Assembly: GCA_040752695.1 (NCBI GenBank)
Contig: JBFMGO010000047.1
Span: 1 to 37,985 of the forward strand
Reading direction: 5' to 3'
DNA length: 37,985 bases
Source of the DNA: a bacterium
Lineage (GTDB): Bacteria; SZUA-182; DTGQ01
The notes below the pieces were generated by a model that was not told the DNA's origin, ran no database searches, and was given only the letters and a program-made list of their open reading frames with translations. Position 1 is the first letter of the stretch; the number at the start of each line of letters is the position of its first letter. The position numbers and the translations under genes are program-made. Positions 2,161 through 37,619 of this stretch are shown piece after piece.

Positions 2161-3579
2161 ATGATAAAAAAAATTACAAAGTTTCTGAGTTCCTTAAGAT
2201 TAACCATTTCTCTTCTTATCATTTTAGCTTTCACTTCAATTGCCGGTACACTGATTCAGCAGCAGCAGAATCCGGCGATCTATGTGCAGCAGTTCGGCAA
2301 ACCCCTTTATAAAGTTTTTCAGGCTCTTGGCTTATTCGACCTTTACCATTCATGGTGGTTCATGTCTCTTCTGGCTCTCTTAGCTCTCAATCTGCTCTTT
2401 TGCTCACTGAAGAGGCTTCCCCGTGACCTGAAACTTATCTTTTCCCCTAAGGTAAAGCTCACCGAGGAAGAACTGAAGTCGTTCAGTTCTCAGGGAAAAT
2501 TCTCAACGAGCAGTCGTTCTCTTGATCAAACCCTCGAAACGGTGCTCGACTCTCTGAAGCGGAGCGGCTTCAGTTGTAAGCAAAAGATTAAGGATGAGGG
2601 CGCATGGCACATCTTCTCGGAGAAAGGTAAGTTCAGCCGTCTGGCCTTTCATGTCACCCACTTGAGCATTATGCTGATCTTTGCAGGAGCAATTCTCGGT
2701 GCAGCCAAAGGCTTTAGTGGTTATGTGAATATTATGGAAGGCTCCAGAGAGAATACCATTGTTTTACGGTCAGGAGGACAGGGCTCGAAACAGCTCGACT
2801 TTGCAGTTGAGTGCAGAAAATTTGAAGTAACCTACTACAAGGACGAATCAGGGAATGACACAGGCAGGCCAAAAGATTATAAGAGTCTGCTCGCTATTCA
2901 TGATCACGGAAAGGAGGTCCTTGCCAAAGAGATCGAGGTTAACGATCCACTCAGTTACGAGGGGATTTACTTTTACCAGTCCAGCTTTGGAGAGATTCCC
3001 CAATTGACCATTACGGTAAAAACTCCGCAGGCAGATTTAGTGGGGAACTTTGCAGTAGAGGAGGGAGGTTCCTTCCGCTTTGTGGATAAGGATAACGAGG
3101 AAGTGAAAGTCCGCCTTCTGCGGTACTTCCCGGATTTTACCATGAATCAGAGCGGGCAGGCCGTCAGCCGGTCAAACACCCCGAATAACCCTGCCGCATT
3201 CCTGGAAATTACATCTGCCCATGGCCAGCCGGTACAAACCTGGGTTTTTCAGCGTTTCCCCGATTTTCCTCATGCCGCTCAAACAGGGTATAAATATTCT
3301 TTAACCTCCACCAATTCGGGGAAAAAATTCACCGGCCTTCAGGTCGTATGGGACCCGGGAGTGCCACTCGTATGGACAGGATGCATTATTCTAGTCATCG
3401 GAATCATCGTTATTTTTTCCGTTCCCCATTATCGGATCTGGATCAGCATTTCTGATAAGGGGAAAAGCCGGGAAGTTATCGTAGCAGGAAACACCAACAA
3501 AAATAAGCCGTCTTTCCAAAATACTTTTTCAAAAATTATCACTGTTTTCAAAAGCAATCTTGCCGATAGGACAAAATAG
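2161..3579 (+). CDS. ccsB: Cytochrome c biogenesis System II protein ResB/CcsB
   Basis: N-terminal TM with GTLIQQ, DLYHSWWF, CSLKR, conserved His in HVTHLS, VNDPL, C-terminal TGLQV..DPG..VW.G TM. Adjacent to ccsA. Confidence 0.93.
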   Translation: MIKKITKFLSSLRLTISLLIILAFTSIAGTLIQQQQNPAIYVQQFGKPLYKVFQALGLFDLYHSWWFMSLLALLALNLLFCSLKRLPRDLKLIFSPKVKLTEEELKSFSSQGKFSTSSRSLDQTLETVLDSLKRSGFSCKQKIKDEGAWHIFSEKGKFSRLAFHVTHLSIMLIFAGAILGAAKGFSGYVNIMEGSRENTIVLRSGGQGSKQLDFAVECRKFEVTYYKDESGNDTGRPKDYKSLLAIHDHGKEVLAKEIEVNDPLSYEGIYFYQSSFGEIPQLTITVKTPQADLVGNFAVEEGGSFRFVDKDNEEVKVRLLRYFPDFTMNQSGQAVSRSNTPNNPAAFLEITSAHGQPVQTWVFQRFPDFPHAAQTGYKYSLTSTNSGKKFTGLQVVWDPGVPLVWTGCIILVIGIIVIFSVPHYRIWISISDKGKSREVIVAGNTNKNKPSFQNTFSKIITVFKSNLADRTK

Positions 3580-3604
3580 ATAACTGTTAGGAGGAAATTT
3601 AGCT

Positions 3605-4441
3605 ATGATCAGCTCAAAATTATTTGGTGCAGCAATGATTATCTACATCGTAGCTGCTCTCATTTACATAACCTACCTGGCGCTGAAGAGCGAAAAAGTC
3701 GGCAACCTGGCTACGGTGATAACCATTCTCGGACTTTGCGTTCATACTGCCGCTCTTATTACCAGGACAGTAGCCTCCTACAGGCAGGGAATTGGCCAGC
3801 CCCCTTTTGCTAATCTGTATTCCTCAATGGTCTTTTTTTCCTGGGCTATTATCTTAACGTATATTATCCTGGAACTTATATACAAGCAAAAAGCGATCGG
3901 AGCCTTTGTCACTCCAATCGCCTTTATTCTTCTCGCTGTCACTACCCTGCTGTCGGATCAGATCGAGCCGCTTGTGCCTGCCTTGCAAAGCAACTGGCTC
4001 CTCTCGCATGTAGTAACCTGCTTTTTCGGCTACGCAGCCTTTGCCGTTGCCTGCGGTATCAGTATCATGTACCTGGTGCGGATTCATTACGAAGGGATGG
4101 GAATGGGGAATACCGGAGTGATGCAAATCCTGCCCTCCTCTGAGCTTCTTGATGAACTGGCCTACAAGGCGATAGTGATTGGCTTTCCTTTTCTGACCAT
4201 AGGGATTATTACCGGCGCAGCCTGGGCGAATTATGCCTGGGGATCTTACTGGAGCTGGGACCCGAAAGAAACGTGGTCTCTTATTACCTGGTTTGTATAT
4301 GCCGCCTTCCTGCATGCCCGGTTCGCCGCAGGATGGAAAGGAAGAAGAACCGCTGTCCTGTCGATTATTGGATTCTTATTCGTACTGTTCACTTATTTAG
4401 GCGTGAGCTGGCTGTTATCTGGCCTGCACAGCTATGCGTAA
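3605..4441 (+). CDS. ccsA: Cytochrome c biogenesis System II haem lyase ResC/CcsA
   Basis: WWD motif [24 protein letters not shown]-terminal GLHSYA; RBS AGGAGG. Confidence 0.96.
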
Positions 4442-4642
4442 ACATCCTTGCATGCGAAAATATTCCTGAGACTGCATTTTTCTTTTGAATATTGAGCCAG
4501 GTTTGGCGATAAGTAAGGTGGATCTGTATAAAGCATGCAATGTCTACTGCTCATCAAAAGAGAGTCGAAAAAGGTCTTCAAGCCTTTCATATCCGCTCTC
4601 TTACCTGATGGAAAAGGCTTGAGTGAGGGGGAACACTTTCAA

Positions 4643-6508
4643 GTGAAAAAACAGACTCATTCCTTAGTTTTCATAGTAAACCTCTTATTTTACATTATCG
4701 CTTCAGGATCTTTTGCAGCATCGTCTCCCTGGAATTTTAGTGTAGATTTATCCTACGAAAAAACTGACCAGACCCAACCCGATGAAACCACCATTGACTT
4801 CACCCAGGAATACAGACTCATGCACAACATTTCCCTTTCCCTGGAAACGAAAATGGAAACCGAGTTGAGAGCAGAGGTCGAACAGGAAGATCGAAAAGGA
4901 TCAGACGAGCCGGACACCCGTCTTTGTAAACCCTATGCCGATTTTCAAATGAAATCCCGCCTCTATGATTTCGGGCTGGGATACAGAGGGTCGGAAGAGA
5001 AAACCGACATCACCACGAGTACGAATGAAGGGTTCGTCAATTTCAAACTACAGCCCGAATTGCTCCCCGAAGTCAATTTCAAGTATGACTTTAAAGGCGA
5101 AAAGGAATCGAACGATCAGAAAACGTACTTTCACGACATTTCGATAAGCTCCCTGTATAACATACAGGATTTTCTCAGGATCAGGCTCGATTACCAGGGA
5201 GAATATACCGACAACCGGACCACAGAGGATCTGGTCGAAGAATCTACCAACGGGGATATCAAGGAGAATAACTTTCTCGGTCAAATCACCTTTAAACATT
5301 TTCTCTTGAGAGACAAACTGAGATTCGCCCTCGACTACAAGGTGGAAAAAGACGATAAAAAAGATCAGGACCCCAATAACGATTTTACCTGGGTCAAGAG
5401 CAATGACCAGCTTATCCAGACGGTAAACAGCCAGATTACCTATACTATTACACCAAGTACCAACCTGTATGCACAATATGAGAAAAAACACACCAAAGAC
5501 AGATCGGATGACAATAAGGACACAACGGCTGAAGCCGATCAAAAGGATAGCTTCCGGATGGATATCTCTCAGAAAATATGTTCTTACCTGATGGTCCTCG
5601 GCAAATATAGAGCTGAAAAAAATAAAAACGACAGGCAAGACGAGAAAATCGATGCCTATGAGGCTGAAATCAATGCAAATCCTCAAAGGTGGCTCGACCT
5701 TCAGGGAAGAGCGCAAATCGAATCCAGACAGACCGACGACCTGCTTAATGACACCAGCGAAAAGAACGACACTCAGACGGTGGAAGGAACCTGGAATGCA
5801 AATTTCCCTCATCTTTTTGACGCACAGAATACTTTTAATGTAAGATTGATGAAGGAAAAAAAAGATGATCAGGATTCCAGACGGGAAAGGCATTATAAAT
5901 GGAGACTGCAAATAGTCCCCATTGTCAATCTCAGGCTGACACCTGAATACGACATTCTGGAAGAAAAGGACTATTTGTCCACCACCACCAATAACAACGA
6001 GAATAAAGATACCCATGAGTTTCGAACAACCATCGCTTATGGACTATCCTTTTCCCAACACCTGAGAATTGACCTTTCCAATTCCCTCAGCCGAAAACGT
6101 GTCAAGGAGAATGGTACCCTGAATAAAGAAAATAACGATGATACAAAACTTGATTTCAAATTTACTCCTACGCAAAACCTGATTTTTTCCTCACAGATCA
6201 TTCGACAAGGTAAGAAGATCTATCAAAGCGGAGTTTTGACTCAGGATGAAGTGGACACTTCCTATGCTCTTAACTACGACTGGCGATTCGATCCCTTTAC
6301 CTGGAGCTCCAGCTTTAAATACGATGACCGAAATCAAAAACAGGAAGGCGACAATGGCACAGGTGATACCGAAACCGTAGAATCCAGAATCACGTATAAA
6401 CCGAACAGAAATTATGACTTTACCATGAATTACAAATATACCAAGACCTATTCTGTGGACAATGATAAAGAACACACGGTAGGATTCCAAGTTCGAGCAT
6501 TCTATTAA
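4643..6508 (+). CDS. Large outer-membrane beta-barrel protein, family unknown
   Basis: Likely GTG start at 4643 (GAGGGGG upstream) gives signal peptide MKKQTHSLVFIVNLLFYIIASGSFA/A. Alternating amphipathic strands with acidic loops; ends in a BAM-type aromatic beta-signal (GFQVRAFY). Confidence 0.75.
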   Translation: MKKQTHSLVFIVNLLFYIIASGSFAASSPWNFSVDLSYEKTDQTQPDETTIDFTQEYRLMHNISLSLETKMETELRAEVEQEDRKGSDEPDTRLCKPYADFQMKSRLYDFGLGYRGSEEKTDITTSTNEGFVNFKLQPELLPEVNFKYDFKGEKESNDQKTYFHDISISSLYNIQDFLRIRLDYQGEYTDNRTTEDLVEESTNGDIKENNFLGQITFKHFLLRDKLRFALDYKVEKDDKKDQDPNNDFTWVKSNDQLIQTVNSQITYTITPSTNLYAQYEKKHTKDRSDDNKDTTAEADQKDSFRMDISQKICSYLMVLGKYRAEKNKNDRQDEKIDAYEAEINANPQRWLDLQGRAQIESRQTDDLLNDTSEKNDTQTVEGTWNANFPHLFDAQNTFNVRLMKEKKDDQDSRRERHYKWRLQIVPIVNLRLTPEYDILEEKDYLSTTTNNNENKDTHEFRTTIAYGLSFSQHLRIDLSNSLSRKRVKENGTLNKENNDDTKLDFKFTPTQNLIFSSQIIRQGKKIYQSGVLTQDEVDTSYALNYDWRFDPFTWSSSFKYDDRNQKQEGDNGTGDTETVESRITYKPNRNYDFTMNYKYTKTYSVDNDKEHTVGFQVRAFY

Positions 6509-6571
6509 TAAGTACGGCTTACCATGAGCCCCTCATTGAATTTTTAACCTGCTGTAGGGAGGAAAAAAACC

Positions 6572-7294
6572 ATGAATAACCTTTCCAAAGTTCGATTCAT
6601 CTCCTTATTCACTGTAATCGGGGCAATGCTCCTTATGCCCCTGGGATGTTCCCGTCTGGCGAAAACGTCAGTTTTTTCAAAGCCTGCCATCGGAACCAAT
6701 GCCATCTTGTATGCACCCTGGAATCCAACCAAAAAGGTTTGTGTATTACCCTTCGATAACATCAGTAAAGAACAGGATGTCAATTTGAAGGTTATGGAAA
6801 TATTTCTCACCGAGCTGTTTTCCGCCGGCATTTTCGAGGATATTGTCGACCCGATTCAGGCCAATGCTGCTTTGGGAGGAATGCGCATCCGCAAACCCGA
6901 TTCTCTCGATAAAGAGACCATCAAGGCCCTGGGTGACAGGTTGGGAGTGCAGTATTTAATTTTGGGAACGGTAACCGACTATGACTATGGAAAGACGAAA
7001 GATGCCGGCTCACAGGTCGGGTTGAGCGTCCGGATGATCGATGTCGATACGGGTAACATCCTCTGGACCGGCAACAGCTTCAAAAATGGCGATAAATCGC
7101 TGGGAAGGATCTTTGGCTTTACCAATGGGCCTAATTCGTCGGAACTTTCCAAAGTGGTATGCCAGGATATTATCACATCTCTCAAATATCAAATTCAGCG
7201 GAGCAGTAACGAAAGAGTCTGGAAGGCCCAGAATCTCCAGGAAAAACCAAAAGCAAAAGTTGCCGTAGACGACCCGGTCGAAAAGAGGCGATAA
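6572..7294 (+). CDS. Lipoprotein of the CsgG/PelC/GNA1162 (DUF799)-like fold
   Basis: Lipobox PLGC (Cys26); VCVLPFDN...LGVQYLILGTVTDY...VGLSVRMIDVDTGNILW pattern typical of this fold. Confidence 0.8.
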   Translation: MNNLSKVRFISLFTVIGAMLLMPLGCSRLAKTSVFSKPAIGTNAILYAPWNPTKKVCVLPFDNISKEQDVNLKVMEIFLTELFSAGIFEDIVDPIQANAALGGMRIRKPDSLDKETIKALGDRLGVQYLILGTVTDYDYGKTKDAGSQVGLSVRMIDVDTGNILWTGNSFKNGDKSLGRIFGFTNGPNSSELSKVVCQDIITSLKYQIQRSSNERVWKAQNLQEKPKAKVAVDDPVEKRR

Positions 7295-7302
7295 GTACTG
7301 CC

Positions 7303-8640
7303 ATGAAAATACCCTCTGTATGTAAAACCCAATACAGGCTTATCAAATTCCGGACGGGCATTGTCTGTTTGCTCTGTTTCCTGCCATTCCTTATCAATGC
7401 CTGCAAGGCAGCAGCACCGCGCCTTTCGAAGATGCCGCCGGCTATGAGTGCCAACCCACAGAACCCGGCCTCTGTACAAGACGAGGAAAATACGCAGGAA
7501 AAAGATTCTCCCGTCTCAGTGACTGCGAAAACCTCTCAGCTTCCAGCGGTAACTGAGGATACTCCTCCACCTCATGAGGAGAAAAGTCCTCTGCCGCCTC
7601 CGCCATCAAGTCCAGAAGAGAGTTCCCTCCCTCAACCGGATACAAAAGACTCCTCACCCGCACCAATTGAACACGACTCTTCTTCACCGCTTCAACAAGA
7701 TTCTCTCCCTCCCCCGCTGCCGGAAAGGAGCGCTAAAAAGAAACTGGGGTATCATCATTACAGCTACTCGTCTTCCTTTGGCGGCTCCGGGATGGGAGGA
7801 GGATTGTTCAATCACCCTGTGGCTATTGCTGTCGATAGCGACGACAATATCTATGTTGTCGATCAGGGAAACAACCTTGTCCAGAAGTTTAATGAAAATG
7901 GTATCTTCATTCGCGAATGGGGAAGACGCGGCACCACTGCTGGGGAATTTGATTCTCCCTCGGCTCTTGCCATAGACAAGAAGGGTTTTGTCTATGTAGT
8001 GGATACCAATAATAATCGGATCCAAAAAATAGACCCGGATAAAACCGAGAAGAACGCGTTCATGGCTTTTGGAGACGGAGACAGAACCCTGGGCTCTGGA
8101 GAGGGAAAATTTCAAACCCCCACTGATATCACCGTAGATAACGAAGGGTATATCTATGTGGTTGATTCCGGTAACAGCCGCATTCAAAAATTCGACAGCA
8201 ATGGAAAATTTCTCAAAGAATTCGGCAGCTATGGTTCCTGCAGGGAGTGCTTTCTGTCTCCTTCACAGATTGCCTATGATCCTACCGGATTTGGCTACCT
8301 GTATGTACTGGATCAGGATCGGAATGGTTTCCTGCTGCACAAGATCGATACCAGCGGAAGATTTTTGCAAACACTGGATGTCTTTCACCAGAAAGAGTAT
8401 CCTGTTTCTAAACCAGCCCATATCTATTTTGATGAGGACGGCTTCCTGTATGTCGTGGATCAGGGAAAGGGTTCGGTTTACAAATTCAATACCGATGGAG
8501 AATTTATCCAGGCGATAGGTGATTCATCTTCTAGAGAGGCCGCTTTGAATAATCCTCGATCAATAGTCCAGGATTCAGACAAACGGCTTTTGATCGTAGA
8601 TTCAGAAAATAACCGGATCAAAATTTTTGACCAGATGTAG
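7303..8640 (+). CDS. NHL-repeat beta-propeller protein, probable lipoprotein with Pro/Ser-rich tether
   Basis: Repeated F..P..IAVD....IYVVD..N.RIQKFD units (about 6); lipobox-like INAC (Cys34); ~110-aa Pro/Ser/Glu linker. Confidence 0.88.
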   Translation: MKIPSVCKTQYRLIKFRTGIVCLLCFLPFLINACKAAAPRLSKMPPAMSANPQNPASVQDEENTQEKDSPVSVTAKTSQLPAVTEDTPPPHEEKSPLPPPPSSPEESSLPQPDTKDSSPAPIEHDSSSPLQQDSLPPPLPERSAKKKLGYHHYSYSSSFGGSGMGGGLFNHPVAIAVDSDDNIYVVDQGNNLVQKFNENGIFIREWGRRGTTAGEFDSPSALAIDKKGFVYVVDTNNNRIQKIDPDKTEKNAFMAFGDGDRTLGSGEGKFQTPTDITVDNEGYIYVVDSGNSRIQKFDSNGKFLKEFGSYGSCRECFLSPSQIAYDPTGFGYLYVLDQDRNGFLLHKIDTSGRFLQTLDVFHQKEYPVSKPAHIYFDEDGFLYVVDQGKGSVYKFNTDGEFIQAIGDSSSREAALNNPRSIVQDSDKRLLIVDSENNRIKIFDQM

Positions 8641-19784: not shown

Positions 19785-19974
19785 GGATTATTCAAGGATT
19801 ATTAAGGATTATTACTGAAATTTCAGATGCTCCCCCAAAAGGACAATAGTATAGAGGAACAATACCATCACGGCGCAGAACAATGCTATTGCGTTAAGAG
19901 ATCGATTCAGGTGGGGCTTTTGCTCAGTACACTGCACATGAAATGCACGGTCAGGATAGCACAATGGATTTTCA

Positions 19975-20024
19975 ATCCGGCTGGAAGACGGCACCACTGC
20001 GGTGATGCCGTCTTCCAGCCGGAT
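19975..20024. repeat. Long GC-rich inverted repeat
   Basis: ATCCGGCTGGAAGACGGCA ... TGCCGTCTTCCAGCCGGAT, 19 bp perfect; 23-bp stem with 4-nt loop on the minus strand. Confidence 0.9.
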
Positions 20025-20223
20025 CTTTAAAGAAAAAACTACCAGGCTCGCTGGTCGGGCCATAATCCGCGACCAGTACTTTAGAGCTATCAGAAAATAC
20101 CTCCTCCCCTTCTTTTGAGGGGGATGAGGAAATTTTTGGCAGGGAATCCTATTTTGGGATAACCTCATCACAACCATGCACAAAATCTCTTCTTCAGGTT
20201 ACAAGTGACTGCCGGATATAGTA

Positions 20224-20361
20224 TTATTTATTCCTCACTTGCTCCTGGTTTACTTGACCCTGCCCTTTATCTCCTCGGTGTTGGCCTCCACTGGCAAAAG
20301 CAGGAACTGCTACCGAGCCTAAAAATGCCACAACCAATAAAATCAAAACCGCTTTTTTCAT
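20224..20361 (-). CDS. 45-aa secreted micropeptide (absent from the ORF track)
   Basis: AAAGGAG then ATG; MKKAVLILLVVAFLGSVAVPAFA/SGGQHRGDKGQGQVNQEQVRNK* with a canonical Sec signal and AFA cleavage site. Confidence 0.85.
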   Translation of the reverse strand: MKKAVLILLVVAFLGSVAVPAFASGGQHRGDKGQGQVNQEQVRNK

Positions 20362-20450
20362 AGGTATTTCTCCTTTTTAGTGATGGTCTGTCAGTATTCA
20401 AGGATGGTCTATCGATACAGTCTCTCGATATAGTTTATCAATATAGAGAA

Positions 20451-20479
20451 ATTATACCAATAATGGTTGCGTTTTTCTA
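20451..20479 (-). promoter_or_regulatory. sigma70 promoter of the micropeptide gene
   Basis: TAGAAA-N17-TATAAT with a TG extended -10. Confidence 0.55.
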
Positions 20480-20608
20480 TATCTATTATCCACTACCTGA
20501 TATTTTCGAGGCTCATTCACCTTGCTTGGTTTAAACTGAAAGAGCTGTCAAGAAATGAGATCAGGATTATCGAGCTCCAGGGACATGATGAGGAGCATGA
20601 TCGTGAGA

Positions 20609-20652
20609 GGGGACAACCAGCAGGTTTTTTGAAAAACGGGTTGGTTGTCCCC
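20609..20652 (-). terminator. Hairpin just downstream of cooS (possible terminator or 3' stabiliser)
   Basis: GGGGACAACCA ... TGGTTGTCCCC 11-bp arms about 15 nt past the stop; weak U-tract. Confidence 0.5.
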
Positions 20653-20666
20653 GATTTTACAAAAAA

Positions 20667-22925
20667 TTAATCAAGGCAATTCGGTTTTTTGAGATACTTG
20701 TTAAATAAGCAAAGAGCATCCTCGGGAGTAACCTCGCCATCTTTGTTTACATCTGCACCATCGGGGCAGGGTTCACCAGGTTTCATAAAGCATTTATAGG
20801 CGATCAGGGCATCCACCGGGGTGATCTGTCTATCTCCATTAAGGTCTCCATTGCAGGCACTTACCGGCAGGCCGAGATTCCGACGTTTTTCGTTCACCAC
20901 GCTTATCAGGGTATCGGCTGCTTTTTCAGGATCTTGTTCTACGTAAAATTTCCCTCCGGTAAGGGTTTCCACTCCATTGGTCAGGAGATTAACTAAATTT
21001 TGGCTTCCACTGATATAGGGCTGTGCTCCTATATGGGTAAAGATACCGAGATCGACAGCCCATGTGCCGATGGAAACAGCTTTTTCAGTGATAAATTCAG
21101 GAGCGGAAGCAGCTATGGGCAACTGGCTGTTCTGGACGTTTAAGTAACCGGCGACCGCATTCACCACATCTTCAATTCTGCTGTTATCTACACACGATCC
21201 CATATGCCAGCAGGCAGGCAGGGCTTCGAGTCCATTTGCCTTGGCCACTGCCTGTAAAACCGCCTTGAGCCCGTCACCCACACCAGGATAAGCAGGGTCT
21301 GCGGTGAGAAACCCATATTGTCCGGCCACATGCCCCCAGCATCCTGTTCCGACCACCAGGATATCCTCTGCCAAAAGCCTCCTGGTTATCGTAACATGGC
21401 GATAACCGTATGTATCACGGGGAGTTACACAGCCTACAACAGCAACGATGCCGCGAATATTATTGGCAGCGATGTTGTCTACCAACGGCTTTAAGGGATT
21501 CGTCGGATTTACGGCTGAAAGGGCCTGAAGGATTTGTTCAACCGAGAAACCAGCCACAATGTCTCTGGGAGGAATATCGGGAATATATACTTTGGAGTGA
21601 TTTCTGTTCCGGAAGTTTTGAACAGCAGCTTGTACAATTTCCCGGGCAACGGTATCTGCATTCTGAGGTTCGAATTCAATGTGGGTAGCGCCGGTAATCC
21701 TGGCGTGTGGATTAGTGGTTATGATTTTGGTATGGAACGAAGACGCAACCCTCTGTATATTCGGAATAATGCATTGGACATCTACGACCATTGCCTCTAC
21801 AGCGCCGGTAACTATGGCCAATTCCTGTTGCACCATAGTGCCGGCAGCATTAACACCTTTTCTCATGAGGACTTCATTCCCCGTACAACACATGCCCACG
21901 ACATTGATAGGCACAGATGGCCCGGAAAGATTATAGGTATTGGCTGCCTCGACGATCTTTTCCGATAAGATCGGCTCATGTCCGTGGATCACCAGGTTGA
22001 TTTTATCTCTCTCGATTACCGTAAGATTTGCTTTGGCAGTCACCAGGGACGGCGTACCAAAGATAACATCCTGGAGGTTAGTAGCCATATGCATTCCGCA
22101 ATAGCCATCAACCAACCCAAGCTTGAGTCCGCACGTCGCCAGATGGGCCATATCAGCATCGACACCCATATGAGTCCTGTGCTGTGCTTCACTGATTTCT
22201 GCACCTGCACCGGTCGGAAGAATGCCCAGGGATGTCCATAGTTTTTTCCGTTCACTGCTGGCCCGGTATTCAAGCCAGGCAGGAACGCCTTCGCTTTTAC
22301 CCAAATCTTCCAGACTCTTTTCAGCTACGGCAAGTGCCTTATTCGTTCCACTGCAACCTAATCCCGTATAAATGGCTTCCAGTTTTGCCGTGTCTACAAC
22401 ACGATAGCCGGTAATCGTTCCCAAGGCCACTGCCTTCAGTGTCCTGGCTGCCGCTCTGGCATGTTCGACATGAGCAGCCGTACCTCCGGCAATACGCCGT
22501 ATTAAATCCCGGGCAGCGATAACATCTGCGGTTGCACCGCAGGTGCCCCTTTCCTCACCCGTAGCTTTTCCCAGTGTGCATGGCCCCATCTGACAACGGA
22601 AACAGCACAGCCCGGCGGCTCCGGCAGTTCCTTTATGAGACCATTCGCAGGGAGCACCTCTATCCCAGACAAGGTCGATGCCGAGGCTTTCTGCACGCTC
22701 CCTCAGATCCTCGGTGATCTGGTCAGGGATAAAAGAGGGTGGCGGAGGTGCCTGATTATGACAGCCAAAACAGCTCCATCCTGTTGGCTGGGCAGCCATG
22801 GCGGTTTCTGCTACAGCAAGCGTTATTCCTGACGCTGTGGCCAGTTTGATGAAATTCCGGCGGCTTACACTCCCATTTTTCAACATATCCAGTAATAAGT
22901 GCATAAAATTTTGATCTTCTTTCAT
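20667..22925 (-). CDS. cooS: Ni,Fe carbon monoxide dehydrogenase catalytic subunit with Tat signal, CxxCH motif and C-terminal dockerin-like domain
   Basis: B-cluster C108-C111-C116-C129; H152/H155; C-cluster motifs HGHEP, MCCTGNE, VDVQC, VVGC, GTGC, HMGSCVDN; catalytic Lys in TEKA. Extra SRRNFIK, CFGCH, and GDLNGDRQITPVDA / ADVNKDGEVTPEDA. Confidence 0.95.
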   Translation of the reverse strand: MKEDQNFMHLLLDMLKNGSVSRRNFIKLATASGITLAVAETAMAAQPTGWSCFGCHNQAPPPPSFIPDQITEDLRERAESLGIDLVWDRGAPCEWSHKGTAGAAGLCCFRCQMGPCTLGKATGEERGTCGATADVIAARDLIRRIAGGTAAHVEHARAAARTLKAVALGTITGYRVVDTAKLEAIYTGLGCSGTNKALAVAEKSLEDLGKSEGVPAWLEYRASSERKKLWTSLGILPTGAGAEISEAQHRTHMGVDADMAHLATCGLKLGLVDGYCGMHMATNLQDVIFGTPSLVTAKANLTVIERDKINLVIHGHEPILSEKIVEAANTYNLSGPSVPINVVGMCCTGNEVLMRKGVNAAGTMVQQELAIVTGAVEAMVVDVQCIIPNIQRVASSFHTKIITTNPHARITGATHIEFEPQNADTVAREIVQAAVQNFRNRNHSKVYIPDIPPRDIVAGFSVEQILQALSAVNPTNPLKPLVDNIAANNIRGIVAVVGCVTPRDTYGYRHVTITRRLLAEDILVVGTGCWGHVAGQYGFLTADPAYPGVGDGLKAVLQAVAKANGLEALPACWHMGSCVDNSRIEDVVNAVAGYLNVQNSQLPIAASAPEFITEKAVSIGTWAVDLGIFTHIGAQPYISGSQNLVNLLTNGVETLTGGKFYVEQDPEKAADTLISVVNEKRRNLGLPVSACNGDLNGDRQITPVDALIAYKCFMKPGEPCPDGADVNKDGEVTPEDALCLFNKYLKKPNCLD

Positions 22926-23179
22926 AACCTTTACACCCTCGATCCTTACGAAAAAGAGTCAATCTATGAGGTATTGATACCTGTCATTGAGAAATTTATT
23001 ATTACTGTTCATCTCCTCTCTGTATATTGAGTGCCTGTCCTGAAACTCCTTTCCAGATGAATAATTGAACCTTTTGCCAATGGCTTGGGATAGCCTCTGA
23101 ATATTCCTATGATGTTGTTGTTAGTTCAGGTCAGCTATAGACTTTATGCTCATGGTCTTACTCTTCAGTCATTATTTAG

Positions 23180-23195
23180 AGCATAATTTGTGCCA
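23180..23195 (-). promoter_or_regulatory. sigma54 (-24/-12) promoter upstream of cooS
   Basis: Minus strand TGGCACAAATTATGCT: GG-N10-GC with TGGCAC and TGCT. Confidence 0.65.
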
Positions 23196-23441
23196 TATTT
23201 ACATAAAGGCCAGCTTCATTTGAGAACTTATCAGTGTCGAGCAGATTATGTTAATGCTTAATTTGATAAATGGGGTGCGGAAAACTTGGATCCATGTTGG
23301 AGATGAGCGTTTAGAACCGCTTTTTTCTCTCTTCCAGAAAGTGGTAAGGTGATAAAGTGATCGCTCATGTCCATTTTCGGTGAAAAGCCGGGTAGTTCAG
23401 CAACTTCATCATTCTGAAGGGTTAGCTTCTTGCCAGCAGGG

Positions 23442-24221
23442 CTAATCTTCAGCCATTAGGTTTAATCTTCTGCCGTTTGGGGAGAAAAGAGGATAGTGCT
23501 TGAGTCCCATTTTCTGCATTCGAAACATTATGGATGTTCTGATAACACCCACGCCGTACATAACGCTCCGCCGAAAGCTTATGGAGGAAGACTCTCCAGC
23601 TATATAACGGGTCGGGCAGGAAACTTCCCCAATTTTAAAGCCGAAGTAAATTGCCTGGGCCAGTATTTCATTGTCGAAGATGAAGTCGTCGGAATTCTCC
23701 TCAAGGGGGAGGTTCTCGATCACTTTTCTGGAAAAAGCACGATACCCGGTATGGTATTCGGACAGTTTTTTCCCGATCAGATAGTTCTCAAAGCAGGTTA
23801 AAAAGCGGTTTCCCAAATATTTATATGCGGGCATTCCGCCGTCCAGGGCACTGTTGCCAAGGATCCTAGAGGCCAGAACAAGGTCATACTGCCCCACGCC
23901 GATGAGCGAGGCCAGCGCATAGATCAGTCTGGGAGTATACTGATAATCGGGATGCAGCATGACGATAATATCCGCACCCAGTGAGAGAGCTGTAGTATAG
24001 CACGTTTTTTGATTTCCGCCATAACCCCGATTCTTAGGATGTCGAATAACCGTGCTCAACCCCAGTTTCCGGGCTACCTCAAGGGTGTCATCCTGACTGG
24101 CATCATCCACTAAAACCACATCGTCCACGATATCGAAAGGGATTTCCCGGTACGTCTGCATCAGAGTTCTGGCCGCATTGTAAGCAGGCATAACTACCAC
24201 AACTTTCTTATCCTGAAACAT
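23442..24221 (-). CDS. Family 2 glycosyltransferase (DPM1-like polyprenol-phosphate sugar transferase)
   Basis: VVMPAYNA, LVDDASQD, NRGYGGNQK, HPDYQY, GYRAF. GGAGG lies before ATG 24221. Confidence 0.92.
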   Translation of the reverse strand: MFQDKKVVVVMPAYNAARTLMQTYREIPFDIVDDVVLVDDASQDDTLEVARKLGLSTVIRHPKNRGYGGNQKTCYTTALSLGADIIVMLHPDYQYTPRLIYALASLIGVGQYDLVLASRILGNSALDGGMPAYKYLGNRFLTCFENYLIGKKLSEYHTGYRAFSRKVIENLPLEENSDDFIFDNEILAQAIYFGFKIGEVSCPTRYIAGESSSISFRRSVMYGVGVIRTSIMFRMQKMGLKHYPLFSPNGRRLNLMAED

Positions 24222-24584: not shown

Positions 24585-25469
24585 ATGAATCCTGCACACA
24601 TTCGGAGCATATTAGAGGCTGTTCAACAGGGAACGACCGGAATCGACGAGGCTCTTGGCGTGCTGAAAAACCTCCCTTACGAGGATCTTGGCTTTGCCAA
24701 GCTGGACCACCACCGGCATATCCGCAGAGGGTTTCCAGAAGCGGTTTTTTGCCCGGGGAAATCCATAGAGCAGATTGTCTCCATTGCCCAAAGGATCACT
24801 GCCACAGGATCGACTCTTCTGGCCACCAAGGCCGGCGCGGAAATCTACGAAGCCATCCGGGCCATTGCTCCTTGCGCCCGCTATTACCCGCAAGCCCGGA
24901 TGATTGTCGTGCAAAAGGAGCCGCCCTCTCAAAAAGGCCATGTTTTGATCCTGTCTGCCGGTACGGCCGATATTCCCATTGCCCAGGAAGCGGCTGTTAC
25001 GGCCGAGGCCCACGGCAGCAGAGTAACCAGTCTTTTTGATGTCGGCGTGGCAGGCATTCATCGATTACTGAGCCATCAGCATCTTCTTGACCAGGCGAGG
25101 GTTATTGTCGTAGCCGCCGGTATGGAGGGTGCTCTGGCCAGCGTGGTTGGCGGACTGGTCAACAAGCCGGTTATTGCTGTGCCTACCAGTATCGGATATG
25201 GTGCCAATTTCAAAGGGGTGGCTGCGCTCCTGACCATGCTCAACAGTTGTGTAGGCGGTGTAGCTGTAGTCAATATCGATAATGGCTACTCAGCAGGCTG
25301 CATCGCCCACCTGATCAATGTCCTGCCAGAGGATGCAGAGGATACAAGGGAGCCGGCACCAGCACCGACAGCAGAGGCGAAAGGAAGGTGCCCAGAGGAA
25401 GGAGATGAGAGAGCACTGATGCAAGGGAAAAGACAAGAGGAAAATGGCAAGAAGGAGAAAACTGATTGA
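24585..25469 (+). CDS. larB: Nickel-pincer cofactor biosynthesis protein LarB
   Basis: LDHHR..RRGFPEAVF, AGTADIP, DVGVAGIHRL, AGMEGAL, VPTSIGYG, MLNSC, VNIDNG. Confidence 0.95.
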   Translation: MNPAHIRSILEAVQQGTTGIDEALGVLKNLPYEDLGFAKLDHHRHIRRGFPEAVFCPGKSIEQIVSIAQRITATGSTLLATKAGAEIYEAIRAIAPCARYYPQARMIVVQKEPPSQKGHVLILSAGTADIPIAQEAAVTAEAHGSRVTSLFDVGVAGIHRLLSHQHLLDQARVIVVAAGMEGALASVVGGLVNKPVIAVPTSIGYGANFKGVAALLTMLNSCVGGVAVVNIDNGYSAGCIAHLINVLPEDAEDTREPAPAPTAEAKGRCPEEGDERALMQGKRQEENGKKEKTD

Positions 25470-26824
25470 AAATTCTCTATTTTGATTGCTACTCCGGCAT
25501 CAGCGGCGATATGATCCTGGGTGCTCTCAATGCCTTAGGAGTGGATAGCAGGTGGCTGAGCGGGCAATTACAATCACTTCCTCTTGAGGGAGTCTCCCTG
25601 GAGCCGCAAACCGTTTCCAGGGGAGCACTGACCGGCACTCTCATGAAAGTCTGCATACCGGACCCTGACCGCCACCCCCGTCAACCCGTCCATCAGCCAG
25701 ACCAGCCCCATCAGCCAGACCAGCATGATCAGTCAAACCAGCCTGATCAGTCCCATCCCCCCCATCACCCACGAAGAACCCTGGCCGACTTTGTCAATCT
25801 CTTGCAGCAAAGCACGCTTTCGGAGGATATCCGCAGTTCGGCGATCAGGGTCTTTACTGCCATTGCTCAGGCAGAGGCCAGGATTCATGGGAAGGATATT
25901 GAAGAGATTCACTTTCACGAACTGGGCTACCTGGATTCGGTGGTTGACATTGTCGGGGCCTTACTAAGCATCAAGGCCCTGGGAATCGAAAAAATTTTTT
26001 CTTCTCCCCTGCATCTTGGCAGTGGCTTTACCTCCACAGAGCATGGAACGATCCCTGTCCCGGCACCTGCCACCCTGGAACTTCTGGCCGGTATTCCCGT
26101 ATACTCCACCGGAATTTCTCATGAACTGGTAACGCCCACCGGCGCCGGGCTCATTTCCACGCTGGCTGCCGGCTTTGGACCCATGCCCTCTTTTTCCATT
26201 GAAAAGACAGGCTATGGTGCAGGCACCAGGGAATTAACGCAGATACCAAATTTCCTTCGGGTCGTCATGGGAACTATGGATACTGCGCAAGCGATCGATA
26301 CCATGGAAACAATCAGAACCTTGGGAACTCCGGCAGCCATGGAAGCTCAAGCAGCCACAAGAACCCCATTTTCAGACTGGCGGATGGAGCGCATATCCAC
26401 GCTGGAAACCGACATCGACGATATGAACCCGGAGTACTACGACCATATCATCGCCCGGCTTTTCGCAGCCGGAGCACTGGATGTCACGCTTATCCCTGTT
26501 ATCATGAAAAAAAACCGGCCCGCCACCCGCCTGAGCGTACTCACCTCACCCGCCCTGAGCGATGAGTTGTGCTCAATAATCGTTCAGGAAACCTCTACCC
26601 TGGGCATTCGCATCAAAGAGGGCTGGAGAAAAGTCATAGACCGGGAAATCATCCAGGTGCACTCTCCCTTTGGTCCCATTCGGGTCAAGATTGGAAAGGT
26701 AAACGGAAAAATGGTCACAGCCTCACCGGAATATGAAGACTGCCGGCACATTGCCCTGAAGGTGAACCGCCCCCTGAAGGAGATCTATCAGGAGGCCCTT
26801 AAATCCATTCCATACAGTTTCTGA
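25466..26824 (+). CDS. larC: Nickel insertase LarC (fused LarC1/C2)
   Basis: YFDC.SGISGDM, HFHE, HG.IPVPAPAT, ELVTPTGA, ETDIDD, MKKNRP, ETSTLGIR, PEYEDC. TTG start overlaps the larB stop. Confidence 0.95.
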   Translation: MKILYFDCYSGISGDMILGALNALGVDSRWLSGQLQSLPLEGVSLEPQTVSRGALTGTLMKVCIPDPDRHPRQPVHQPDQPHQPDQHDQSNQPDQSHPPHHPRRTLADFVNLLQQSTLSEDIRSSAIRVFTAIAQAEARIHGKDIEEIHFHELGYLDSVVDIVGALLSIKALGIEKIFSSPLHLGSGFTSTEHGTIPVPAPATLELLAGIPVYSTGISHELVTPTGAGLISTLAAGFGPMPSFSIEKTGYGAGTRELTQIPNFLRVVMGTMDTAQAIDTMETIRTLGTPAAMEAQAATRTPFSDWRMERISTLETDIDDMNPEYYDHIIARLFAAGALDVTLIPVIMKKNRPATRLSVLTSPALSDELCSIIVQETSTLGIRIKEGWRKVIDREIIQVHSPFGPIRVKIGKVNGKMVTASPEYEDCRHIALKVNRPLKEIYQEALKSIPYSF

Positions 26825-37400: not shown

Positions 37401-37619
37401 CTATTTCTCAGAAGTGCTTTTCTCCTCAATCTCCTTTTTCGTGGCATCGGTGATTTTCTCCCGCGCCTCTTTCTCTGCGCCTGATGAGGTTGCATCCTTA
37501 AAATTGCGAATCGCTTTCCCAAGGCCGTGGCCGATTTCAGGCAGTTTACCAGCCCCGAAAATAATCAAAACGATTACCAGGATAACCAACAGTTCCGCCA
37601 TGCCAATTCCAAAGGGCAT
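37401..37619 (-). CDS. tatA: Twin-arginine translocase subunit TatA
   Basis: [38 protein letters not shown] before ATG 37619. Confidence 0.95.

Follow-up and report, generated by a model that had tools for sequence, protein, structure and literature searches.

The locus and its product

The DNA considered here, referred to below as the window, is a stretch of 37,985 nucleotides (contig JBFMGO010000047.1 of assembly GCA_040752695.1) from a bacterium of the lineage SZUA-182 (DTGQ01). It carries a gene for a nickel- and iron-dependent carbon monoxide dehydrogenase (Ni,Fe-CODH) of the CooS type, in which a single chain of 752 amino acids (aa) joins a predicted twin-arginine translocation (Tat) signal, a CxxCH motif of the kind that carries haem c, a catalytic core and a C-terminal dockerin (Table 1). 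The reading proposed here, to which slightly better than an even chance is given, is that the product is a functional extracytoplasmic Ni,Fe-CODH, exported by Tat, with a c-type haem as its electron exit and a dockerin as its tether. In the labels used below, G000 is the genome of the window, a draft in 239 contigs, G002 and G003 are its congeners, L numbers denote loci, and P numbers denote proteins of relatives.

Table 1. Features of the window, with positions counted from its first letter and residues from the first Met of the CODH
Feature	Position	Strand	Basis
Complete CODH open reading frame (Tat signal, CxxCH tail, CooS core, dockerin), 752 aa and stop, ATG start	20667..22925	-	ORF translation, Pfam, NCBIfam
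Predicted Tat signal peptide, residues 1 to ~44, with long conserved n-region, h-region LATASGITLAVAETAMA and AMA/AQ cleavage-type site	22794..22925	-	
SRRNFIK twin-arginine motif, residues 21-27	22845-22865	-	translation
CFGCH (residues 52-56), where haem c may be attached at the N-terminus of the mature protein; QAPPPP comes next (PPPP = 60-63)	22758..22772	-	
His97 codon, candidate distal haem ligand, 4 residues after invariant Cys93 and next to the column of the first 6elq D-cluster Cys	22635..22637	-	
CooS catalytic core (residues 68-687), including the catalytic His and Lys, the ligands of the B- and C-clusters and putative ones of the D-cluster	20865..22724	-	Pfam, NCBIfam, 6elq alignment
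Type-I dockerin, residues 690-752, with two Ca-binding repeats, DLNGDRQITPVD and DVNKDGEVTPED, and conserved Cys	20670..20858	-	Pfam, module alignment
Upstream intergenic region, 516 bp, with GAGGG/AAAGG ribosome-binding-type stretch before the ATG	22926..23441	-	
Hairpin with 21-nt arms, starting 15 nt past the CODH stop codon, probable transcription terminator	20609..20652	-	inverted repeat
Segment missing at the same site in congener G003; contains the CODH gene and an ORF of 123 aa with unknown function	19794..23464	.	comparison with G003
ResB (2161-3579) and CcsA (3605-4441), housekeeping System II pair that would attach haem in G000	2161..4441	+	
tatA/E-type gene of the general Tat machinery, on which export of the enzyme would depend	37458..37607	-	

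The catalytic core is matched over its whole length by two independent family models. The Pfam Prismane/CODH model (PF03063) covers residues 106-667 with E 1.9e-146 and all of its positions (1-513 of 513), and the CooS equivalog of NCBIfam (TIGR01702) covers residues 70-686 (model 5-621 of 621) with 583.4 bits against a cut-off of 478. The closest solved structures are those of Carboxydothermus hydrogenoformans CODH-IV (6ELQ; E 2e-168), the CODH of Thermococcus sp. AM4 (6T7J; 4.5e-163) and CODH-II (1SU6 and others; ~4e-150), all aligned from query residue 68 to residues 684-687. These enzymes are alike in fold and catalytic core but begin at query residue ~68, and have neither signal, CxxCH nor dockerin. 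In the HMMER alignment with 6elq, the motifs HGH(316), CC(347)TGNE, VQC(385), VGC(499), TGC(529), HMGSC(578), AAH(152) and EK(615) are aligned, as is the B-cluster motif C108-x2-C111-x4-C116...C129. The assignment of residues to clusters follows the numbering of CODH-II, in which the C-cluster ligands are His261, Cys295, Cys333, Cys446, Cys476 and Cys526 and the catalytic residues are His93 and Lys563. Across the 68 aligned full-length members of the clade described below, no variation is seen in the Cys of the B-cluster, the ligands of the C-cluster or the catalytic His and Lys. An earlier note, made from the sequence of the window alone, had claimed that the core keeps every one of these residues, which is borne out; its extensions of about 63 N-terminal and 62 C-terminal residues are real as well, with lengths that come here to ~67 and ~65. 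By these signatures the protein is an intact monofunctional CooS-type Ni,Fe-CODH, predicted to be active.

The D-cluster, which in these enzymes lies nearest the surface end of the electron wire, departs from the known arrangement. The presumed pair consists of C93, which is invariant in the clade, and C107, spaced as C93-x13-C107 (13 residues before C107) rather than as the canonical C-x7-C. Compared with 6ELQ, the first D-cluster Cys is thus displaced from its column, and K98, next to H97, aligns at the canonical position instead.

A clade of extended CODHs

Among 5.8 billion protein clusters, about 75 (at the 90% identity level; P0002-P0076) cover the N-terminal extension of the window CODH. 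They are 59-92% identical to it and are mostly unnamed or derived from metagenome-assembled genomes (MAGs) of Thermodesulfobacteriota/Desulfobacterales. The next relatives are archaeal CODHs of 626 aa with ~51% identity, which begin at the core without any extension. In a FastTree phylogeny of 83 sequences, all 68 members of the clade fall on one branch (support 98), and this branch splits into a subclade that has the Tat-type signal only (21 sequences, support 99) and a subclade characterized by CxxCH (47 sequences, support 97). The clade is scarce among genomes: of 20 from the small phylum to which the window belongs, 2 carry it, as do 4 of the 401 sampled from Thermodesulfobacteriota, the phylum of locus L036. 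The earlier note had treated the architecture as a one-off; in fact the Tat and CxxCH part defines a whole clade, and the dockerin is the only addition particular to the genus.

The C-terminal dockerin

The dockerin model PF00404 matches residues 693-742 of the CODH with 31.9 bits against a cut-off of 22.9, and the Asp columns of the Ca-binding repeats are invariant in an alignment of 40 modules. G000 is rich in such modules, with 42 Pfam matches and 44 ORFs found by an iterated profile, to which the CODH dockerin is related at E 1e-15 to 1e-33. Together, 47 modules of G000 form one tight family with 5-6 conserved Cys, mostly placed at the extreme C-terminus. Nearly all of the 47 end their proteins with ...KYLGxPSCLD, and in the CODH copy one conserved Cys is replaced by Gly. 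These Cys and the common end could mean that the dockerins are stapled by disulfides or have an added sorting function.

The partners of dockerins are also present in the genome. There are 40 matches to the cohesin family (PF00963), 39 of them above the cut-off; cohesins are mostly single, with up to three per protein, and often occur on dockerin proteins themselves. One protein of 559 aa (L025:1402-3081), with a lipobox-like N-terminus, carries two cohesins and no dockerin. For a predicted complex of the second of these cohesins with the CODH dockerin and 2 Ca, the median score was 0.21 against a mark of 0.32, a value used as evidence in neither direction. Among the dockerin-tagged proteins is also a redox protein of 1325 aa (G000:C83:13746-17720; L069; L166:5750-9724), which has 23 CxxCH motifs, MtrC/MtrF-like domains, a Sec-type signal and the same C-terminal dockerin. 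The gene of this 23-haem cytochrome adjoins a Nuo-like gene row.

Outside G000, the complete architecture recurs in congener G003, whose protein P0002 has the same 1-752 organization with all three additions and is 92% identical overall. When residues 600-752 were used as the query, P0002 alone covered the whole region with 90% identity, and the other 119 listed matches reached at most 58% coverage, limited to the C-terminus of the CODH; as far as the index reaches, the dockerin fusion is therefore specific to the genus. The dockerin family itself has been expanded in the genus, with 42, 29 and 20 matches in its genomes versus 1-4 in other members of the family.

What the tag does is less certain than that it is there. 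It may mark secreted proteins of the genus in general, so that they are kept in the envelope or matrix or sorted, with no functional coupling to cytochromes, and this alternative, although we hold it to be rather unlikely, is the most serious one. The large number of ORFs that carry the module, its usual place at the extreme C-terminus with the conserved SCLD end, and the genus-wide expansion would all fit such a tag. Pfam scans of the 40 other dockerin ORFs point the same way: 22 also carry a cohesin, and the families found are mostly adhesin- or protease-like, including VWA, beta-helix, C25 and C1 peptidases, CotH, alpha-2-macroglobulin, CARDB and HYR. Only one of the 40 is a cytochrome and the other 39 are not redox proteins, which speaks against a tether devoted to electron transfer. 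Moreover, the cohesin/dockerin proteins of syntrophic sulfate reducers are treated as adhesins in published work (PMC10553843). On the other side, the same tag is borne by the 23-haem cytochrome, and it has been kept on the CODH in two species at the high identity given above.

On balance, docking of the CODH on a scaffold is plausible from sequence. The earlier note had proposed a periplasmic or surface enzyme that docks on a scaffold and feeds cytochromes; of this, export and the link to c-type haem are favoured by comparison and docking is plausible, but nothing identifies a redox scaffold. Its term 'cellulosome-like' can be retained only as an analogy, since no glycoside-hydrolase catalytic family occurs among the Pfam families of the 40 other dockerin ORFs, which are mostly of the adhesin- and protease-like kinds listed above. 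Nor was a classical multi-cohesin scaffoldin with a carbohydrate-binding module seen in G000.

The CxxCH motif and His97

The motif CFGCH lies past the AMA/AQ site, just after the likely point of cleavage. The mature protein is predicted to begin at Ala45 with the peptide AQPTGWSCFGCH. CxxCH is present in 42 of the 68 clade sequences and CxxC lacking the His in 4; the other 22 are without either. In every carrier the motif is found beyond the cleavage-type site, a fixed 33-35 residues ahead of the core's WDR motif and a variable distance of 25-39 residues after the twin arginines, which indicates that CxxCH is positioned relative to the enzyme and not to the signal.

A scan for group-specific columns adds a second residue to the motif. 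Position 97 is His in 41 of the 42 CxxCH sequences, in none of the 22 sequences that lack the motif and in none of the 4 with CxxC only. According to the FastTree phylogeny, the 4 CxxC-only sequences are one derived clade inside the CxxCH subclade, and in P0008, the closest sister of the window CODH, the motif has been lost entirely; both lineages that lost the His of the motif also lost H97. The co-variation of H97 with CxxCH amounts to ~3 independent events. A functional role for CxxCH together with H97 is thus supported by the comparative data, and H97 is a candidate sixth ligand, which would place a bis-His haem beside the D-cluster, at the surface-exposed end of the electron wire of the CODH.

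Genes next to relatives of the CODH point to c-type haem as well. At L038, a Myxococcota MAG whose CODH is 63% identical and has CNACH, a ResB-like gene of 363 aa overlaps the end of the CODH gene and is followed by a CcsA-like gene of 266 aa. At L101, a metagenome contig whose CODH is 74% identical (its N-terminus is cut off), a ResB-like gene of 371 aa follows directly. These two ResB-like proteins are mutual orthologs (234 bits), with only 13-36 bits to the housekeeping ResB of the window. In G020, another holder of the CxxCH type, the same short ResB/CcsA pair is present at a place not adjacent to the CODH gene, and with that query the pair was not found in the Tat-only holders G021 and G120. 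The link of the CODH to c-type haem is therefore partly supported, by the co-variation of CxxCH and His and by the adjacent ResB/CcsA-like genes.

Other neighbours vary. An H-NOX gene (PF07700, haem-NO-binding), which may encode a sensor of CO gas, stands directly upstream of CxxCH-type Tat-CODH genes at L086:324-845 and L108:705-1238. Five-haem cytochromes are encoded within a few kb of the CODH genes at L097 and L111. No universal neighbour of the CODH genes of the clade was found; ResB-like, CooC-like, H-NOX and multihaem genes each occur in only 2-3 loci.

Several facts weigh against a haem at this site. CxxCH is missing from 26 of the 68 members, P0008 included, so that haem is not essential to the exported enzyme, and P0030 has kept CxxCH but has Gln at position 97. 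The ResB-like gene was seen adjacent to the CODH in only 2 contexts, and the short ResB/CcsA pair was not found with that query in G000 or G003. Haem c is normally attached to unfolded apoproteins exported by Sec, and a Tat substrate would be unusual. The AF2 model, predicted from the clade alignment, has a confident core (predicted local distance difference test, pLDDT, 82.6; predicted template modelling score, pTM, 0.82), but confidence is low at residues 44-50, at residues 100-113 and in the dockerin, and it thus offers no geometry for the placement of a haem beside the D-cluster. Finally, a non-haem metal or an Fe-S centre could be held just as well by two Cys and two His.

The last point leads to an alternative in which the CODH is exported but CxxCH and His97 hold no haem, and serve instead a non-haem metal, an Fe-S centre assembled in the cytoplasm, or a periplasmic disulfide. 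Tat substrates normally gain their cofactors in the cytoplasm, as textbooks have it, and the 4 clade members that keep C-x-x-C but have neither His point to a possible function of the Cys pair by itself; the missing dedicated pair in G000 and G003 would also be in line with it. However, CxxCH is the canonical haem c motif, and it always lies past the cleavage region of the signal peptide. Genes of the haem-lyase type directly follow the CODH in two distant lineages (ResB-like in both, CcsA-like at L038), and G000 has System II genes as well as 49 ORFs with at least 3 CxxCH motifs. We regard the non-haem alternative as improbable, and retain haem c as the favoured occupant of the motif.

Proposed export by the Tat pathway

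The Tat consensus is S/T-R-R-x-F-L-K (PMC3712460), to which SRRNFIK fits at 6 of 7 positions. All 68 aligned full-length clade members have R22 and R23, and the 20 residues ahead of the pair are conserved among the relatives too, from which it follows that translation includes the signal. Since the twin arginines are kept in all 68 sequences and CxxCH recurs in 42 with a constant spacing to the core, these features are not due to chance. The twin-arginine signal, the CFGCH motif and the PPPP linker that the earlier note had described can all be read in the translation. A Tat-like pattern occurs in only 13 ORFs of G000; judged by their N-termini alone, the 13 include 2 that resemble small subunits of [NiFe]-hydrogenase and several like molybdopterin enzymes, with FdhA-like N-termini also present. 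The machinery is present in the genome, with TatC at C15:45981-46610 and TatA/B genes at C15:45524-45661 and in the window at 37458-37607. As the earlier note had suspected, tatA and ccsBA of the window look like housekeeping genes, the window ResB being only remotely related to the ResB-like genes linked to CODHs. A second CcsA is encoded at C4:98034-98864.

Export by Tat is thus inferred from comparative evidence. The contrary view, that the CODH is cytoplasmic, its extension being no export signal or its start lying downstream, and that it uses ferredoxin as other CooS proteins do, can appeal to the models of Tat signals: TAT_signal (PF10518) scores 13.5 bits at residues 20-39, under its cut-off of 22.7, and TIGR01409 scores 16.5 bits, just under its cut-off of 16.7. 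These short models are weak tests; a precomputed PF10518 match exists in 4 relatives. To our knowledge, all Ni-CODHs studied so far are cytoplasmic, with partners of the ferredoxin or CooF type, and the literature search gave no exception. Against a cytoplasmic enzyme stand the invariant twin arginines, the protein-level conservation of the residues before them and the fit to the consensus. A Cys-rich dockerin and a CxxCH motif would moreover make little sense in the cytoplasm, and no cooF or ferredoxin gene is nearby. A cytoplasmic location is accordingly judged very improbable, and Tat export is kept as part of the proposed reading.

The Tat-only subclade (P0033-P0066; L036, L089-L096, L099) has features of its own. 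Its members are without CxxCH, and most have 2-3 Cys in the n-region of the signal peptide, ahead of the twin arginines, for example as CxxC or Cx3CxxC, in a part that is expected to remain in the cytoplasm and to be cleaved off. Their genomic context is conserved, with DAHP synthase/PDT, an AMP-binding enzyme and an HDOD-EAL protein upstream, and an unknown protein of ~950 aa, a histidine kinase and a sigma-54 regulator downstream. Two deeper-branching CODHs, P0077 and P0079, which are 50-53% identical, have a twin-arginine N-terminus of the TRRQ type and group with the signal-less archaeal CODHs of 626 aa; by this placement, gain or loss of the Tat signal may have happened repeatedly in this part of the family.

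At L035, in a Thermodesulfobacteriota MAG, a gene for a eukaryotic-type (alpha) carbonic anhydrase (L035:6715-7455) is located 2.5 kb upstream of a 75%-identical CODH with Tat signal and CxxCH. In bacteria, alpha carbonic anhydrases are usually periplasmic, and this one would fit CO2 handling outside the cytoplasm.

Genomic setting

The CODH gene of the window is monocistronic, having its own upstream region and a terminator-like hairpin, and its neighbours are unrelated to it: it is flanked by rpsB-tsf-pyrH-frr and, in the other direction, by genes for a GT2 glycosyltransferase and LarB/LarC. In agreement with the earlier note, which had reported none adjacent, no cooC, cooF, acsB or hydrogenase gene is annotated anywhere in the 37,985 nt of the window. 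No redox partner, scaffold or maturation gene adjoins the CODH there, a setting that tells against the proposed reading. Elsewhere, G000 has two other CooS genes, one in an acs operon and one beside Ech-type hydrogenase genes. CooC-like genes adjoin the CODH genes of relatives at L104, L115 and L111, and their ortholog in G000 is found on contig C87 (250-259 bits), within a methyl-branch gene cluster.

In G003, rpsB and the GT2 gene are only ~66 bp apart, so that the window from ~19794 to 23464 is an insertion relative to that genome; the segment was either inserted in the genome of the window or lost in G003. The CODH copy of G003 is on another contig, in a different context, adjoining a gene of a PD-(D/E)XK transposase family. 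It matches window 20627-23022 at 87% DNA identity, as compared with 73-80% for the flanking housekeeping genes, and the first ~97 bp of the upstream region are conserved between the two copies. No CODH gene was found in G002, of the same genus. The closest matches of the SecD of the window are from bacterial MAGs (58-79% identical), with other phyla at ~55%, and the nearest relatives of the CODH outside the genus are proteins of Thermodesulfobacteriota at 75-77%. Horizontal acquisition of the CODH gene is the simplest reading of these comparisons, and a probable one.

That the architecture is an assembly chimera, or the gene a decaying one, is hardly credible: the draft is in 239 contigs and the gene lies inside an insertion relative to the congener, but the frame is intact with all catalytic residues present, and an independent genome has the same architecture in other surroundings, 92% identical in protein and 87% in DNA, with P0002 spanning the junction fully, by which a chimera is ruled out.

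Within the insertion, the flanking pieces 20225-20376 and 23207-23242 both match G003 C22:183122-183411, in opposite orientations, and could be what is left of a mobile element; within the window, the inserted segment showed no terminal repeats. A hairpin with 23-nt arms, 96% complementary, lies at 19975-20024, within the 123-aa ORF of unknown function (19812-20183). On the plus strand at 24585-26824, 1.7 kb upstream of the CODH, are genes for a LarB-like protein (AIR carboxylase domain) and LarC, a nickel insertion protein, which belong to the nickel-pincer cofactor. A service of LarB/LarC to the CODH was considered and rejected, because their homologues in G003 are on another contig than the CODH and the proximity looks coincidental. 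Directly after ccsBA, at 4535-8640 on the plus strand, follow an ORF of 657 aa with a weak match to Gram-negative porins, an LpoB-like ORF of 240 aa and an NHL-repeat beta-propeller of 445 aa. A protein with NHL repeats, MopE and cohesin is encoded elsewhere in the genome (L170). The genome also has 7 secretin genes.

Proposed mechanism

The catalytic residues, the motifs and the domains can be read from the sequence itself. In the scheme that follows, export and assembly, catalysis with its direction, the partners and the tether are inferred, and haem attachment and the axial ligands are drawn from comparative evidence only. The CODH gene would be a self-contained unit, probably acquired horizontally. 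The Fe-S clusters and Ni would be inserted in the cytoplasm, the Ni by a CooC-type ATPase encoded elsewhere in the genome, and the folded dimer would then be exported by TatABC via SRRNFIK, as happens with periplasmic [NiFe] hydrogenases and formate dehydrogenases. Once outside, the mature protein would gain a covalent haem c at its flexible, CFGCH-bearing N-terminus from the System II proteins ResB/CcsA, with His56 and His97 as the axial ligands and the haem beside the D-cluster. The enzyme, now periplasmic or on the surface of the cell, would catalyze CO + H2O -> CO2 + 2H+ + 2e-, and the protons would be released outside. Electrons would run from the C-cluster over the B-cluster and the D-cluster to haem c, which would replace the ferredoxin/CooF partner of cytoplasmic CODHs, and would pass on into the very large pool of multihaem cytochromes. 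A C-terminal dockerin from the genome's own family, added in this genus only, would tether the CODH to cohesin-bearing envelope proteins, possibly alongside the dockerin-tagged 23-haem cytochrome.

A bolder form of the proposal may be considered, though as a whole it is doubtful. It is that of an extracytoplasmic 'redoxosome', in which a Tat-exported CODH with a bis-His haem and the 23-haem cytochrome would sit together on cohesin proteins, and oxidation of CO (or, in reverse, reduction of CO2) would be wired into extracellular electron transfer. The enzyme would then represent a widespread, undescribed clade of sediments and the first instance of haem attachment by System II to a Tat substrate already folded.

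Relation to known systems

The periplasmic [NiFe] and [NiFeSe] hydrogenases and the formate dehydrogenases of sulfate reducers are exported by Tat and donate electrons to cytochrome c3. The logic proposed for the CODH is alike, with assembly of the metallocentre in the cytoplasm, passage through Tat, release of protons outside and transfer to c-type cytochromes. The family and the substrate differ, and the first cytochrome would here be a single haem fused to the catalytic subunit, rather than a separate protein exported by Sec.

Wolinella succinogenes has dedicated System II haem lyases, NrfI and CcsA1, for special cytochromes with the non-standard motifs CxxCK and CX15CH. The CODH loci resemble this case in that extra ResB/CcsA-type genes stand beside the gene they would mature, at L038 and, with ResB only, at L101. 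Unlike it, the motif is the standard CxxCH, the unusual part being a folded Tat substrate, and the dedicated pair was not found in G000.

With the cellulosome of Clostridia, the window genome shares the type-I dockerin with two Ca-binding repeats and the presence of cohesins in the same genome. It differs in that no glycoside-hydrolase catalytic family was listed for the 40 other dockerin ORFs scanned and no classical multi-cohesin scaffoldin was seen in G000, and in having genes of the outer-membrane type, namely 7 secretin genes and one with a weak porin match. A parallel may be drawn with the non-cellulosomal cohesin/dockerin proteins of anaerobic methanotrophic (ANME) archaea and syntrophic sulfate reducers, where many such modules are found on secreted adhesin-like proteins, often both on one protein (PMC10553843). 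These anaerobes also perform extracellular electron transfer. The proteins are described as putative adhesins in that paper, which mentions neither CODH, CooS nor 'carbon monoxide dehydrogenase'. The window genome is unlike that case in having the tag on a CODH and a 23-haem cytochrome.

The earlier note had stated that no described example was known, and none came to light: in a full-text collection that omits most subscription journals, no description of an exported, haem-tagged or dockerin-tagged Ni-CODH was found. In the main survey of CODH diversity (PMC6344411), the words 'signal', 'cytochrome' and 'dockerin' do not occur.

Significance

If true, a clade of CODHs exported by Tat would shift the oxidation of CO to the periplasm. 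CO would then join H2 and formate as a periplasmic electron donor, with protons given off outside the cell, and CO cycling, as well as CO detoxification before its entry into the cell, would become live ideas again. A CODH with a fused c-type haem would be a new design of electron exit, relevant to CO/CO2 electrocatalysis, and would at the same time be a test case for the attachment of haem to a folded Tat substrate. In metagenomes of sediments the clade is common, with its ~75 clusters, and in genomes it is rare, as the 4 of 401 for Thermodesulfobacteriota indicate, and this rarity may explain why it has gone unnoticed so far. Finally, the occurrence of the dockerin both on the CODH and on the 23-haem cytochrome suggests that the cohesin-dockerin systems of anaerobes can organize redox enzymes besides adhesins.

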